Part shown: positions 1-58,952 of the stretch, in pieces
How positions within the stretch are numbered: position 1 is the first letter of the stretch
Layout of the letters: each line of letters begins with the position of its first letter
Assembly: GCA_947625505.1 (NCBI GenBank)
Contig: CANQON010000002.1
Location: 73,984 to 137,983 of the forward strand
Reading direction: 5' to 3'
DNA: 64,000 bases
DNA from: an uncultured Bacilli bacterium
Lineage (GTDB): Bacteria; Bacillota_I; Bacilli_A; RF39; UBA660
Position numbers and translations under genes: made by a program
Notes under the pieces: model-generated
Database searches by the model: none
Seen by the model: only the letters and a program-made list of their open reading frames with translations
Told to the model about the DNA's origin: nothing

Positions 1-1446
1 GACTTAGATGGATTTGCTAATAATGATGTTGAAGCAGCTTCATTAGTTCCTGAAGAAAAATATTTACCTTATGAAATAAGATTAACTTTTGATAAAGATA
101 TCGTTCTTCAAAAGGAATCTAATGTTGATGTTACAACTACATTAGCACCTGAAGATGTCCAAGCATTATCTGATGCATATGGATATACTGAAAATACAGA
201 TACATTAACTACATCACAAACTGTACATGAAACAGATAATCTTCCAGTTTATAAGTATGCAGGAAAAATTAGTACACAAGTATTAAAACCTGAATCAGGA
301 TTTAATAAATTAGAAGATGGATTTATTGCTTTTGTAGTTGCACCTAAAACTATAATTCCTAATAAAACAACTATTACTATTGATAAAGCATCTAATGATG
401 GTAAGGAAAAAGTTATTACATTTGAAGACGAAGAACCTTTTGTAATCCTTCGCCGTGTTGATAAAACCAATCCTGAAATTAAATTAACAGTTGACATTGA
501 TGGAAGTGGAAATGAATATTTACCTTACTCATTCTATATTAATTATAATGATGTAGAGGTTGAACAAGTTGTTCATCAAACTATACCAGAAGAAATGGCT
601 GAAGAAGCATCTAATGGTATTCAAAGTTCATTTAATTATACTGAACCAAAGAATCAAAAAGTAACAGTTTCATATAGTAATAATACAATTACTATAACTG
701 GAACAGCTGCTAAAAATAAGACAGTTACTGGATTTGGTAAAGATGCATCTGGATACTATGTTCCATTCTCATTAAAGTTTGATAAGAGATATGAAGATAT
801 TACTATTAAAATGCCTAGAAATAGTGAAGTAGCTACTATTAAAAATTTTGATACAGATACTGAAATTGGCGTATTATTTCAAGTTCATCCAAATGGTGAT
901 GAATCTACAGCAACTATTACTGTTGATTTAGATGGAGCTAAAAATGTATATCAACCTTATAATATTACTGTTGATTATTCTCAAGTTCAGTTCTTATCAG
1001 ATGATGTTCAATTTGTAAAACTTGATGAAGCAAAAGCATCTGGCTATGAAAATTGGATGAAAAATTCTTATAATTTTGATAGCTTTAAATTAGGTACTTT
1101 TGAAGTTACACAAGAGGGAACAAATGTAACAATAACTGGAACTTCTAATAAGAACACTAATAAAAATCAAGAAGAACAATATTGGATTGCTTATTTATTA
1201 AAATTAAATAAAGATTATCCTGATATTGAAATAAAAAAACCAAATGGTGATGTTGAAAAGCATAATTCTAGTGCTTGGGACAAAGGTAGCAACAATTTAG
1301 AAATGACACTTACTGATAATGTTACTAATAAGCTTACTGAAAATACATCATATGAAATAATAGTTGATTATGATGGAGAAAATAAAGATGTTTATTTACC
1401 TGTTACATACACAATTGATTGGTCAGGAGTAACAAAATCAGAATAG
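1..1446 (+). CDS. Secreted/cell-surface repeat protein, C-terminal portion (5' end lies outside the window)
   Basis: Frame 1 has no stop from base 1 into track ORF 595..1446, so the Met at 595 is internal. There are three ~130-aa modules, each ending in a similar motif (TVDIDGSGNEYLPYSFYINY / TVDLDGAKNVYQPYNITVDY / IVDYDGENKDVYLPVTYTIDW). A terminator follows. Confidence 0.7.
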   Translation, partial: DLDGFANNDVEAASLVPEEKYLPYEIRLTFDKDIVLQKESNVDVTTTLAPEDVQALSDAYGYTENTDTLTTSQTVHETDNLPVYKYAGKISTQVLKPESGFNKLEDGFIAFVVAPKTIIPNKTTITIDKASNDGKEKVITFEDEEPFVILRRVDKTNPEIKLTVDIDGSGNEYLPYSFYINYNDVEVEQVVHQTIPEEMAEEASNGIQSSFNYTEPKNQKVTVSYSNNTITITGTAAKNKTVTGFGKDASGYYVPFSLKFDKRYEDITIKMPRNSEVATIKNFDTDTEIGVLFQVHPNGDESTATITVDLDGAKNVYQPYNITVDYSQVQFLSDDVQFVKLDEAKASGYENWMKNSYNFDSFKLGTFEVTQEGTNVTITGTSNKNTNKNQEEQYWIAYLLKLNKDYPDIEIKKPNGDVEKHNSSAWDKGSNNLEMTLTDNVTNKLTENTSYEIIVDYDGENKDVYLPVTYTIDWSGVTKSE

Positions 1447-6063: not shown

Positions 6064-6615
6064 ATGAAGAAGTTAGCAATTGTTTTATTGCTTACTTTAT
6101 TATCATTACCTATAATGGTTAATGCTGTTGTATGGGGTTCAGGTTCTTATGATAATATTAATGTTTATGTTTTTACAAATAAAGATTGTAAAAATTGTGA
6201 TAAAAAAATGGAATATTTAGAAGGACTTAAAAAAGATAATTCACGTATTACGATTAGTGAAATTAATACTGATGATAATAAAGAGTTAGTTGATGAAGTT
6301 AAGAAAGCTTTAAATATTAAGAGTAATAAATTGCCATTAGTAGTTGTTGGATCTAATTATTTTACAGGTTCTGATAAAGAGTTAAAGAGTGGAATAGATG
6401 CTTATTTAGATAAAGATGATAATTGTGATGTAGTATCAACTATAAAAAGTAATGGTGATGTAAGTAAATGTATTAAAACTAATGATGGTATATATAAACA
6501 AAAGAGTAATATTTCAATGATAAGTATTATTATAGTTATCGTTATTGCGATTGTTGTTGCGGCTGCTATCTTAGTTATTGTTAAGAAAAAGAAGAATAAA
6601 AATTGTACTTTATAG
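6064..6615 (+). CDS. Extracytoplasmic thioredoxin/glutaredoxin-fold protein with a CxxC motif, an N-terminal signal peptide and a C-terminal membrane anchor
   Basis: AGGAGG RBS. Signal peptide MKKLAIVLLLTLLSLPIMVNA. The CxxC sits in VYVFTNKDCKNCDKK, i.e. after a beta-strand as in thioredoxin folds. The C-terminus has a hydrophobic helix followed by KKKKNKN. Confidence 0.55.
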   Translation: MKKLAIVLLLTLLSLPIMVNAVVWGSGSYDNINVYVFTNKDCKNCDKKMEYLEGLKKDNSRITISEINTDDNKELVDEVKKALNIKSNKLPLVVVGSNYFTGSDKELKSGIDAYLDKDDNCDVVSTIKSNGDVSKCIKTNDGIYKQKSNISMISIIIVIVIAIVVAAAILVIVKKKKNKNCTL

Positions 6616-55075: not shown

Positions 55076-55120
55076 TCTCTTTTCTTTTTTTATGCTATAA
55101 TGAGGATAGTAGGTGAGTGT

Positions 55121-56563
55121 ATGAATAAGAAGAAGATAATAATTATTATTTCTATTTTTATTGTATGGGTTTTAGCGCTCCTATTAGCTTACATAATAGG
55201 ATCTAAAAACAAAGTATCCGAAACGCCTAAACAAGAGAATAAGACAAATAATACTAATTTAAAAGGTATATCAGCTTATGATACATTTGATGGTAATAGT
55301 TTAAATATTAGAATAATTAATGTAAATGAAGATAATTATTATCTACAAATAGAGGGATTAAAAGATAAACAGGTTGAAGATAAAATCAATAAAGAATTAT
55401 TAAGTATTTATACGGATTTAACTAAACAAGTAAGTAAGAATAAATATTCATCTATTCAAATGAATGTTACATCAAATATAAATGATATTTTATCTATTAC
55501 TTGTGATGTTCTGACGGATGATGATTCAGGTATATATAAATCCTATAATGTTAGTTTAATTAATGGAGAAGAAATATTCTTTGATGATTTATTTAATGAT
55601 AAAACAATTATTAATAGTATGATAACTAATGGATTATATTCTCAAATGTCTTTAACTAATGGAATGGTATGTGCTATAGATGATTGTGATTCAGATATTG
55701 AAAATAGTACCATTGAAGATACTATTTATAGCCTTCTAAAAAATATTGATTATCATGATATAGAATTTAATATATATAGTACCCATATTTATTTCCAAAT
55801 AGGTGAATATTATGGATATGCCTTTATAAGTGATTATGGAAAATATATAGATTATCCTTATAAATATAAATCTTCTAATTATTTATATACTAAAGATTTT
55901 GCTGTTAAGAATGTTAATTATAATATAAGTAATAGCTCTTTAATTTATTTTAATCGTAAATATTTAAATGATAATATCTTTGTTGATGTTGCAGGTTTTG
56001 GTACTTCTTATGTTAATGAAGAAGATGCTTATACTATAAACAATATTTATAAAATTGATGATGTTGTTAAGATGTATGCTACTAATAAAGATAAAAATAA
56101 AATGAATTATTATAATATAAGTGTTGAATTAGAAACTAATGATGATTATAATTTATATGGTACTTATTATACTTGGCAAGAGTGTACGACGACACCTGAT
56201 TATTTTAAAAATAATGTCTATAAAATGATTTATAATGATGAAGAACTTGCTGAATCAAATAGTAATTATTTAGTGTTAGAAGAAGATAAAAATGTAAAAT
56301 GCGTTGATAAAGAGATAAAAGAATTGGATTATGTATACAATAATGATAATAAAAAAATAGAGTATCTTAGTGATTTATTTAAACCTGGATATGATTATTT
56401 ATCAGTTGTAAAAAAATATTTAGAAACAGAGGGTATTGATACAAGTAATATTGATGAAAAAGCTGATTTTCAGATAGATGTATATTCCTTTTATTATTTA
56501 TATAATGGTGATACGATGTCTATTGATTATAATATATTTGATCGCAATGGATTTGCTATGTAG
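55121..56563 (+). CDS. N-terminally membrane-anchored protein of unknown function
   Basis: Track ORF is 55100..56563. I prefer ATG 55121, which follows AGGTGAG. One TM helix, then a Tyr/Asn/Asp-rich domain. Confidence 0.6.
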   Translation: MNKKKIIIIISIFIVWVLALLLAYIIGSKNKVSETPKQENKTNNTNLKGISAYDTFDGNSLNIRIINVNEDNYYLQIEGLKDKQVEDKINKELLSIYTDLTKQVSKNKYSSIQMNVTSNINDILSITCDVLTDDDSGIYKSYNVSLINGEEIFFDDLFNDKTIINSMITNGLYSQMSLTNGMVCAIDDCDSDIENSTIEDTIYSLLKNIDYHDIEFNIYSTHIYFQIGEYYGYAFISDYGKYIDYPYKYKSSNYLYTKDFAVKNVNYNISNSSLIYFNRKYLNDNIFVDVAGFGTSYVNEEDAYTINNIYKIDDVVKMYATNKDKNKMNYYNISVELETNDDYNLYGTYYTWQECTTTPDYFKNNVYKMIYNDEELAESNSNYLVLEEDKNVKCVDKEIKELDYVYNNDNKKIEYLSDLFKPGYDYLSVVKKYLETEGIDTSNIDEKADFQIDVYSFYYLYNGDTMSIDYNIFDRNGFAM

Positions 56564-56571
56564 GAGGATTT

Positions 56572-57615
56572 ATGAATAACGAAGAAAAAAAAGTTGAAGA
56601 AAAAAAGGATAATGTAATTAAAACAAATAAAGAAATGGATCAAGATTTAATAAAAAATATTGAAAATTTAGAAGTATATAAGGATGTTAAACCTAAAAAG
56701 AAAAAGAAATTTTGGAAAATATTTCTTGTTATTTTAGTTTGTTTATGTATGGGATTAAGTGTATATGGTGTATACTACTTATCTAGTCATAAAACTAAAG
56801 AAGAGAAAATAGATATGGAAACAATTTTATTTACTGAAGAAAATCTACCTAGAGTAGATGCTTCTTTAGCAACTCAACCTTTAGTCGATGCCGTTATAAA
56901 AAATTTTACAGGTAAAACTGTTAAAGATTTTGGTATTGAATATACTAATACACATCCAGGATATGTTAAATTAATTAATAATGAAGCCGATTTAATCGTT
57001 GTAACAGAACCTAGTGATGAAGAGTTAAAATTAGCTAAGGATAAAGGTATTGAACTAGAAGTTACTAAAGTAGTTAATGAAGGCTTTGTTTTCTTTGTTA
57101 ATATTGATAATCCTGTAGATAATGTTACTTTAGAACAAATACAAAAAGTATATACAGGAGAAATAACTAATTGGAAAGATTTAGGAGGAAAAGACGCTAA
57201 AATAGTTGCTTTTCAAAGACCTGTTAATTCAGGTAGTCAAACAGGATTACTTAGTTTAGTAATGAAAGATAAGAAAGTAAAGGTACCTACAACAACAGAG
57301 CAAATTTCTTCTATGTATGGTATTATCGATGTTGTATCCGATTATGATAATGGAATAAATGCTGTTGGATATTCCTATTATTACTATGCTAATACAATGT
57401 ATAAAAATGATAATTTAAAATACTTAGGTATTAATGGTGTTATTCCTACATATGAAACGATTCAAGATGAATCATATCCTTTATTATCGGCATATTATAT
57501 TGTTACACGTAAAGATGAAACAAATGATAATGTTAAAAAATTAAAAGATGCTATGTTATCTAAACGTGGCCAATTAGTAGCAAAAGAAGCTGGATATATA
57601 CCTTGTATTAAGTAA
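56572..57615 (+). CDS. Membrane-anchored PstS-family (phosphate-binding-protein-like) substrate-binding protein
   Basis: K/E-rich N-terminus, a TM helix, then PBP-fold motifs DASLATQPL, RPVNSGSQTG, GYSYYYY and ESYPLLSAYYIV. Confidence 0.65.
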   Translation: MNNEEKKVEEKKDNVIKTNKEMDQDLIKNIENLEVYKDVKPKKKKKFWKIFLVILVCLCMGLSVYGVYYLSSHKTKEEKIDMETILFTEENLPRVDASLATQPLVDAVIKNFTGKTVKDFGIEYTNTHPGYVKLINNEADLIVVTEPSDEELKLAKDKGIELEVTKVVNEGFVFFVNIDNPVDNVTLEQIQKVYTGEITNWKDLGGKDAKIVAFQRPVNSGSQTGLLSLVMKDKKVKVPTTTEQISSMYGIIDVVSDYDNGINAVGYSYYYYANTMYKNDNLKYLGINGVIPTYETIQDESYPLLSAYYIVTRKDETNDNVKKLKDAMLSKRGQLVAKEAGYIPCIK

Positions 57616-57620
57616 GACTA

Positions 57621-57650
57621 TTGACAAGGTATATTTAAAAATGATATATT
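57621..57650 (+). promoter_or_regulatory. Sigma-A-type promoter with extended -10
   Basis: TTGACA (57621-57626), about 18-nt spacer, TGATATATT (57642-57650). Confidence 0.55.
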
Positions 57651-57655
57651 AAAAG

Positions 57656-57834
57656 TGCTAAAAGATATGGTTTGCTGAATTATGAAAAACCTACTAATTA
57701 ACGTATTGGGAGTTAAAGTAATATATGCTGTGTTGAAGACCTTTTAATTAAGGGATCCTGACGCCTATAGCTTGACACCCACCTGGTAGAACAGGTTTTA
57801 ATCGTTAACTGGCGCCGATCTTTTGGCTTTTTTT
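57656..57834 (+). ncRNA. Unclassified ~180-nt structured RNA (stand-alone sRNA or 5' leader of the acyltransferase gene)
   Basis: Local G+C island. A closing helix GCTAAAAGAT (57657-57666) / GATCTTTTGGC (57817-57827) is followed directly by T7. Internal helices: GGTTT/AAACC (57669-57691), TTAACG/CGTTAA (57698-57703 / 57803-57808), TGGGAGTTAA/TTGACACCCA (57707-57716 / 57772-57781), GCTGT/ATAGC, CCTT/AAGG and CCTG-GTAGAA-CAGG. Confidence 0.55.
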
Positions 57835-57887
57835 ATTGTCTAAAACAGCTTATTTTGTTATAATAGAAAATGTTTGTAGGTGATAAG

Positions 57888-58952
57888 ATGAAAAAACATA
57901 ATGGAACTATCTCATTACTTAAATTTATATTTGCTTTTATTGTTATGATGTATCATTTTCGTATTTCTTTTTTTCCAAGTAATAGGCATTTACTCCCAAT
58001 TAATTTAGGCTATCTAGCCGTTGATTTTTTCTTTATTGTATCGGGATATTATTTTGGCTTAAGTGCTATTAAAGATTGGAATAAAAGAAGTAATATATAT
58101 TTAGATAATCTTAAAATGCTATGGAAAAAAATTAAGAAGTTACTTCCATATAGTATTATTGCCACTATTATTACTTGTATTGGTGTCTATTTTTTAAGAA
58201 ATTTTTCTCTTAGCCAATTATTGCCTAATTTTTTTGGTATGTTTTTCTTATCTAGTTTTGGAATAGGAAATAATCTTGTAGGAACCATATGGTTTATATC
58301 TTCAATGCTAATTAGTATGGCTATAATATATCCATTGTTGAGAAAGTTAAAAGTTAATTATATATACTTTTGGGCACCATTAATTATTTTCTTTGGCTTT
58401 GGTATCCTATATCGTAATTTTAATAACCTTAATATCTATAATATTGTTTTAAATAACTATATATATGGAGGCTTAATAAGAGCATTTGCAGATATAAATA
58501 TTGGTGTGATATTAGGATATGTTATTAAAAATAGTCATTTAACAGTCAAGCCTGTTAAATTATATATATATATAATTACTTTTATTGAATTTTTATTATA
58601 TGTTTTTATAATAGGTATAATATTAATTTATCCAAAAAGCAGTCATTTAGATTATCTACTTATTCCTGTAATTACTTTAGCTCTTACAATAAGTTTTTCA
58701 GAAATAAGTTATTCATCGAAATTATTATCTAATAAGTTTGTTTATTATTTAGAAAAAATATCAATGCCACTTATGTTTAATCATCTTATGATTTTTAAAA
58801 TTTTTGAAGAATTTAATTTTAAAAATTTTTCAAGTACTTTTGTATTGCTTGGATTATCTATCTTAACTATTATTTTTACCATTATTGAATATCATTTATT
58901 AAATTTTATAATACCTAAAATAAATTTAAAAAAGTTTTTAGTAGAAAAGTAA
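57888..58952 (+). CDS. Acyltransferase-3 family integral membrane O-acyltransferase
   Basis: Track ORF is 57870..58952. I prefer ATG 57888, which follows AGGTGAT. About 10 TM helices, with the N-terminal LKFIFAFIVMMYHF motif typical of the family. Confidence 0.75.
   Translation: MKKHNGTISLLKFIFAFIVMMYHFRISFFPSNRHLLPINLGYLAVDFFFIVSGYYFGLSAIKDWNKRSNIYLDNLKMLWKKIKKLLPYSIIATIITCIGVYFLRNFSLSQLLPNFFGMFFLSSFGIGNNLVGTIWFISSMLISMAIIYPLLRKLKVNYIYFWAPLIIFFGFGILYRNFNNLNIYNIVLNNYIYGGLIRAFADINIGVILGYVIKNSHLTVKPVKLYIYIITFIEFLLYVFIIGIILIYPKSSHLDYLLIPVITLALTISFSEISYSSKLLSNKFVYYLEKISMPLMFNHLMIFKIFEEFNFKNFSSTFVLLGLSILTIIFTIIEYHLLNFIIPKINLKKFLVEK

Follow-up and report, generated by a model that had tools for sequence, protein, structure and literature searches.

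6S RNAs, which occur in nearly all bacteria, imitate an open promoter with their rod-shaped fold; they bind the housekeeping holoenzyme and template short product RNAs (pRNAs), which refold the 6S RNA and free the polymerase. In B. subtilis 6S-1 RNA (BsrA), pRNA synthesis starts at nt 40, within the 5' bubble, and the free RNA carries a small hairpin in its 3' bubble; once helix P2 has been unwound, its 3' strand pairs with the distal part of the 5' bubble in a central bubble collapse helix (CBCH). Across Firmicutes, positions 4/5 or 5/6 of the pRNA are occupied by GG, and the 6S RNA has an adenine just upstream of the start. The genes that surround 6S loci are conserved only within particular taxa, and since no syntenic pattern is common to all bacteria, synteny does not define the family.

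We analysed a stretch of 64,000 nucleotides (hereafter the window) from an uncultured, low-GC (AT-rich) gut member of Bacilli with a reduced, Mollicutes-like character. Here a PBP_like_2 gene (56572-57615) is separated by a gap of 255 nt from an Acyl_transf_3 gene, and an initial annotation made by reading the sequence had placed in this gap an unclassified structured RNA, stand-alone and about 180 nt long, with a promoter and an intrinsic terminator of its own. The stand-alone RNA and both of its signals were borne out by our analysis; its unclassified status was not, for cmscan gave the result, a known family, that the annotation itself had named as refuting it. Searching Rfam with cmscan assigned 57652-57833 (+) to the 6S/SsrS family (RF00013) with 66.2 bits (E = 7.2e-11), which exceeds the gathering score of 46.4 by about 20 bits, and the match covers the model from end to end (positions 1-187 of 187, not truncated). 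RF00013 was the sole Rfam family to reach its gathering score in the 64-kb window, and a permissive Rfam scan of 57500-57950 gave an E value of 0.78 for the next best family. The same window contains no tRNA or tmRNA gene detectable by ARAGORN and no Rfam match to RNase P.

The initial reading had also found none of the signatures of 6S RNA. The cmscan alignment, however, matches the Rfam consensus core around the central bubble, GGGAG...CACCCACCUGG.A.A.CAGG.U, within the end-to-end match described above. Together with the score above the gathering threshold, the locus displays a rod of about 180 nt, within the range of about 160-200 nt typical of 6S RNAs, compensatory base changes, the conserved core, a gene that stands alone and the sequence hallmarks of a pRNA template, which are the traits by which 6S RNAs are recognized. 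We therefore consider it highly probable (roughly 95%) that this RNA is 6S RNA (ssrS), with the canonical rod, its own sigma-A-type promoter and a U7 end. The RNA gene is real and its limits had been set correctly, but its product is an ordinary 6S RNA of an already known kind that standard Rfam annotation would label; the feature should be annotated as ssrS and dropped from the candidate novel RNAs. Only two points are mildly unusual, the apparent fusion of the closing stem with the terminator and an AU-rich predicted pRNA, and both are considered below. The coordinates of the gene, its parts and the flanking signals are collected in Table 1.

Table 1. Features of the 6S RNA locus, in window coordinates
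Feature	Position	Strand	Details
sigma-A-type promoter of the 6S gene	57621..57650	+	TTGACA (57621-26), 18-nt spacer, TGaTATATT (57642-50)
6S RNA gene (ssrS)	57652..57834	+	Rfam match 57652-57833; 3' end in the U-tract; about 180 nt
closing (terminal) stem, 5' strand	57657..57670	+	helix 1: 17 pairs, 2 with compensatory AU->GC changes
predicted pRNA template	57681..57695	+	alignment to the Rfam consensus and published hallmarks
helix P2 ("downstream" helix), 5' strand	57683..57691	+	UGAAAAACC; pairs with 57794-57804
5' central bubble	57692..57707	+	UACUAAUUAACGUAUU; a single A/G difference (L099) among three homologues
collapse helix, 5' strand (predicted)	57698..57703	+	UUAACG; distal 5' bubble; constrained folding
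internal (apical) stem	57708..57780	+	GGGAG...CACCC with bulges; helices 3-6, 3 compensatory pairs
apical hairpin	CCUU(57740-43)-UUAAUU-AAGG(57750-53)	+	within the internal stem
3' central bubble and small hairpin	57781..57796	+	bubble 57781-57793; hairpin ACCUG (57781-85)/CAGGU (57792-96); alifold
collapse helix, 3' strand (predicted)	57803..57808	+	CGUUAA; overlaps the P2 3' strand; CGUUA conserved in L099 and L084
closing stem, 3' strand	57813..57827	+	contains a weak local mini-hairpin as well
U7 tract of the intrinsic terminator	57828..57834	+	consensus scan
downstream promoter, outside the RNA	57836..57864	+	TTGTCT-17-TGtTATAAT; 10/12 matches plus TG (consensus scan)
Acyl_transf_3 gene (context)	57888..58952	+	probable start ATG 57888; AGGTGA at 57878-83

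Secondary structure prediction agreed with the family assignment in its overall shape. Both the minimum free energy (MFE) fold (-42.9 kcal/mol) and the centroid fold are one long interrupted hairpin, and when the Rfam structure was mapped on the sequence its six helical segments stacked into a single rod with 49 pairs, 46 of them standard, a 5' bubble of 16 nt and a 3' bubble of 13 nt. The multi-branch fold that had been drawn for this RNA is thus replaced by a rod, and the only small local hairpins in the alifold consensus are two that lie inside the central bubble. The arrangement of closing stem, P2, central bubble and apical stem in a rod of about 180-200 nt is that of B. subtilis 6S-1 and of the single 6S RNAs of lactic acid bacteria (Firmicutes 6S-1 type), and the E. 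coli 6S RNA (SsrS), a member of the same Rfam family, shares the open-promoter mimicry architecture and the conserved core around the bubble.

To learn how the locus is conserved, we searched metagenome contigs for the exact 20-nt core of the 3' bubble, CACCCACCTGGTAGAACAGG, which returned 20 loci. Seventeen of these were unrelated DNA of 57-62% GC that shared only the 20-mer and were discarded. Two full-length homologues matched the 6S model, L084 with 83.2 bits and 78% identity to the window RNA and L099 with 56.2 bits and 84% identity, and a third, L087 (JAEIGA010293882.1), gave a partial match of 50.6 bits and has the same 20-nt core. The bubble-flanking core GGGAG...CACCCACCUGG.A.A.CAGG.U is invariant in all three. 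The locus was also found with 100% identity on three ENA/Logan metagenome contigs of the same species (L001-L003), which were left out of the covariation analysis because identical copies hold no covariation information.

For covariation, the three full-length sequences (window, L099 and L084) were aligned with MAFFT, blind to structure, and the Rfam consensus structure was projected on the result; L087 was excluded from the pair counts because it could not be aligned reliably across the 5' bubble. Standard pairs occupied 91% of the cells, compared with 35-48% when the 3' partners were slid by 1-3 columns. Five pairs were changed on both sides, a number reached by 8 of 500 shuffles, which with three related sequences amounts to qualitative support. 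Two of the five are AU->GC changes in the closing stem, at different positions, one in L099 and the other in L084. This support, though qualitative, does not depend on the Rfam score. Hardly any variation occurs in P2 or in either strand of the central bubble: P2, with its 9 pairs, is 100% paired and without variation in the three sequences, the 3' bubble is invariant as well, and the 5' bubble together with the P2 template region contains only three variable positions across homologues that are 78-84% identical. Such near-invariance fits selection at the sequence level on the region expected to contact the polymerase and to serve as template.

These data also bear on the trivial explanation that AT-rich intergenic DNA happens to fold and to score as 6S RNA. 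The fold energy is only modestly better than that of shuffled sequences (z = -2.07, with 2 of 200 shuffles folding as well), and 17 of the 20 metagenome loci with the 20-nt core were unrelated high-GC DNA. Against a coincidence stand the E value over the full model, the promoter and terminator that bracket the Rfam match exactly, the independent homologues with their compensatory changes, and a G+C content that rises above that of the flanks, so we regard a chance match as having a negligible probability. In numbers, G+C is 0.37 across the RNA and 0.40-0.44 across 57700-57849, in comparison with 0.15-0.30 in the flanks, in keeping with the G+C-enriched segment that had been pointed out by eye. 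A small-protein gene in the gap was likewise considered: the gap offers just two 21-aa ORFs, and the one on the plus strand crosses alignment indels in L084, so that its coding is not conserved and this candidate was rejected.

The 17 contigs that carry the identical 20-mer and are otherwise dissimilar to 6S RNA (L085, L086, L088-L098 and L100-L103) come mostly from the human gut. Four of them (L092, L095, L096 and L098) contain, about 5 kb from the 20-mer, a class-A RNase P RNA with an identical score of 259.2 bits, and this shared score suggests that they probably derive from one abundant gut species. The contig of the L084 homologue also bears a T-box leader (RF00230, 117.1 bits) at 558-735 (+), about 6 kb upstream of the 6S gene.

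The transcription signals of the gene were located with a consensus scan. The promoter matches the consensus at 11 of 12 positions and has in addition an extended -10 TG (57642-43) ahead of TATATT (57645-57650), as had been noticed in the initial annotation, and the TTGACA...TGnTATAnT arrangement is conserved in register in L099 and L084. From the position of the -10 element, transcription would probably start at a purine at about 57655-57657, that is, 0-2 nt ahead of the closing stem. There is thus no evident counterpart of the 11-nt 5' leader of 6S-1, and the transcription start is probably the mature 5' end, as in B. subtilis 6S-2 (BsrB). At the other end, one terminator-like site was found, compared with 0.1 expected from shuffles, and its T-run is conserved in L099, L084 and L087. 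A sigma-A promoter and a rho-independent terminator are likewise found in 6S-1 and in the 6S genes of lactic acid bacteria.

The 3' end shows a more particular arrangement. The pairing of the first 10 nt of the closing stem with the 11 nt that directly precede the T7 run, proposed before from the letters alone, is present in both the MFE fold and the Rfam structure (GCUAAAAGAU, 57657-57666, with GAUCUUUUGGC, 57817-57827). In the window RNA, L099 and L084, the run of 6-7 U residues begins directly after the 3' strand of the closing stem, and the local alternative is a mini-hairpin which in the window is GCCGA-UCUU-UUGGC (57814-57827), with -5.3 kcal/mol in comparison with -15.5 for the closing duplex. 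Over the three sequences the mini-hairpins range from -4.8 to -5.6 kcal/mol and the closing duplexes from -15.5 to -20.0, and the mini-hairpin of L084 has just 3 bp. The distant homologue L087 has, after its closing stem (UCCAAGGAG/CUUCUUGGA), a GC-rich hairpin dedicated to termination, GCGGGG-GUAA-CCCCGC-U5, and B. subtilis 6S-2 also has a separate putative terminator hairpin, unlike the window RNA, where the closing stem abuts the U-tract.

The weakness of the mini-hairpins, the stronger closing duplexes and the separate hairpin of L087 make it plausible that the closing stem acts as terminator in a clade-specific manner. We tentatively propose, as a possibility with the odds still against it, that the 6S gene was compacted in the clade to which the window, L099 and L084 belong, and that the long-range closing stem, rather than the weak mini-hairpin, is itself the stem of the intrinsic terminator. 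The two strands of this stem are transcribed about 160 nt apart, and if the proposal is true, the 3' end would form correctly only once the entire RNA had folded. This would amount to a built-in quality control that has not been described for model 6S RNAs, which rely on processing or on a separate terminator hairpin.

An OFF-type leader of the acyltransferase had been suggested as an alternative: a cis-acting leader or attenuator in which signal sensing by the RNA would control, through its terminator, how much transcription continues into the Acyl_transf_3 gene. In its favour are the same-strand position of the RNA, its end in a terminator and the acyltransferase ATG 54 nt beyond the U-tract, a distance that our coordinates reproduce. 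The acyltransferase, however, has a promoter of its own: the TATAAT-like site noticed earlier between the RNA and the gene proved to be part of a TTGTCT-17-TG-TATAAT element (Table 1), which would place the transcription start at about 57870, just 5' of the AGGTGA ribosome binding site. The mechanical ORF of the acyltransferase begins at ATG 57870, while the metagenome gene call (354 aa) begins at 57888, which is probably the true start.

The gene neighbourhoods argue in the same direction. The 6S RNA of the window lies between PBP_like_2 and Acyl_transf_3, that of L099 between PGA_cap and a GNAT gene on the opposite strand, that of L084 between SPFH-zinc-ribbon and RNase_T genes, and that of L087 between AspRS and a PP-loop protein. 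The four homologues are therefore found in four different neighbourhoods and, outside the window, none is upstream of an Acyl_transf_3 gene, which gives a negative answer to the question, raised in the initial annotation, whether homologues always adjoin acyltransferase-3 genes. Differing neighbours are expected of a trans-acting RNA gene and not of a leader. Given, in addition, the end-to-end match to the 6S model and the absence of any Rfam match to a riboswitch or leader family at E<0.7 in this region, a leader function appears very unlikely. The four 6S loci share no conserved neighbours, and the context in the window is not the rarA/uspA context of lactic acid bacteria.

The position of the 6S gene was further compared through the PNPase gene, which is encoded 2.6 kb upstream of the RNA locus and whose product is 75-80% identical in uncultured Tenericutes/Bacilli metagenome-assembled genomes (MAGs) and in Mycoplasma sp. 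CAG:877. We scanned with Rfam the 11 closest of 80 PNPase loci (66-80% identical; Tenericutes, Bacilli and "Muribaculaceae" MAGs and Mycoplasma sp. CAG:877) and found no 6S match within about 7 kb of PNPase in any of these 11, which indicates that the position of the 6S gene is not conserved. The distant homologue in L087, at 1060-1290 (-), lies immediately downstream of the aspartyl-tRNA synthetase gene and on the same strand. In B. subtilis, bsrA (6S-1) also lies near aspS. The aspS neighbourhood may be the ancestral context of 6S RNA in Firmicutes, lost in the lineage of the window.

Having assigned the locus to 6S RNA, we looked for the pRNA that it would template. By sequence homology to known pRNA starts, synthesis would begin opposite C57694 or U57695 and would proceed in the direction of the 6S 5' end. 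A start at C57694 predicts the pRNA 5'-GUAGGUUUUUCAUA (also given as GUAGGUUUUUC), with GG at 4/5, and a start at U57695 predicts 5'-AGUAGGUUUUUCAU (also given as AGUAGGUUUUU), with GG at 5/6 and A57696 just upstream. If the RNA begins at 57655, the predicted start falls at about nt 40, and across the three homologues at nt 38-40. The predicted start near nt 40, the adenine upstream of it and the early GG are shared with B. subtilis 6S-1. Compared with the pRNA of 6S-1 (GUUCGGUCAAAACU), the predicted (A)GUAGGUUUUUCAUA is richer in A and U and has no AA at positions 9/10; it contains 4 G/C in 14 nt, closer to the 3 of 6S-2 than to the 6 of 6S-1. With such an AU-rich pRNA, the kinetics of release may differ from those of 6S-1. 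The AU-rich composition and, if the start is C57694, the GG at 4/5 recall 6S-2 (AAAGGUUAAAACUU). The predicted 5'-(A)GUAGGUUUUUC provides a concrete sequence to look for in small-RNA data from the gut.

Next, we examined by constrained folding what would follow when the 14-nt template is blocked. Under this constraint, UUAACG is predicted to pair with CGUUA(A/G) in the window RNA, L099 and L084, and the ACCUG/CAGGU hairpin (57781-57796) is predicted to form in all three. This hairpin is part of the 20-nt core that is identical in all homologues, and it forms in the free MFE folds of L099 and L084; the free MFE fold of the window RNA favours full P2 over the hairpin. Since the ground state predicted for L084 already contains the collapse helix, the balance between P2 and the CBCH lies beyond the accuracy of the energy model.

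On these predictions, the 5-bp hairpin of the 3' bubble and the collapse helix would be those of 6S-1, and the hairpin would distinguish this RNA from 6S-2, whose central bubble is less structured. E. coli 6S RNA forms an extended 3'-bubble hairpin of 9 bp once the pRNA has been made and not before, and it has no collapse helix; the modelled refolding here resembles the Firmicutes solution to release rather than that of E. coli.

By homology with the E. coli and B. subtilis RNAs, the following mechanism can be proposed. The rod would mimic an open promoter and sit in the active-site cleft of the sigma-A holoenzyme, and this occupation would damp housekeeping transcription when growth slows. 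Upon the return of NTPs, the polymerase would copy the 5' bubble together with the 5' strand of P2 into the pRNA 5'-(A)GUAGGUUUUUCAUA; its synthesis would unwind P2, the freed 3' strand would pair with the distal 5' bubble (UUAACG/CGUUAA), the small 3'-bubble hairpin would be kept, and the refolded 6S RNA would leave the polymerase.

While this scheme follows that of 6S-1, the RNA could instead have drifted in function, either as a 6S-2-like RNA that would bind polymerase yet seldom be released by pRNA, or as one retained for some other purpose where the genome is reduced and sigma factors are few. The likeness of the AU-rich predicted pRNA to that of 6S-2, with GG at 4/5 if it starts with G, agrees with this idea, and so would the reduced Mollicutes-like host, in which the competition among sigma factors that is the usual rationale for 6S RNA may be limited. 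Drift of this kind is nonetheless improbable, because the few variable positions of the template region, the invariant 3' bubble and the 6S-1-type release elements predicted in all three homologues point to a templating and release mechanism under selection. A canonical 6S RNA is kept in a reduced-genome, Mollicutes-like lineage of gut Bacilli, with strongly conserved templating and release elements; our literature search on 6S RNA in Mollicutes found no direct statement on this subject.

Additional observations were made on the contigs and genes around the locus. Two of the PNPase relatives, L007 (77% identity) and L011 (68%), come from MAGs titled "uncultured Muribaculaceae", a family of Bacteroidota, and these titles clash with the Tenericutes/Bacilli titles of the other relatives, probably reflecting mis-binning or mislabelling of MAG contigs. 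Another PNPase relative, L015, encodes a class-B RNase P RNA (286.6 bits) at 6114-6449 (+), about 3.5 kb downstream of PNPase, which fits a lineage of Firmicutes/Mollicutes type. Finally, a 487-aa ORF at 55100-56563 (+), between the PNPase and PBP-like genes of the window, had no Pfam match at E<=0.01, and its gene is also present on the metagenome contigs L001 and L002, where it is called as 480 aa.
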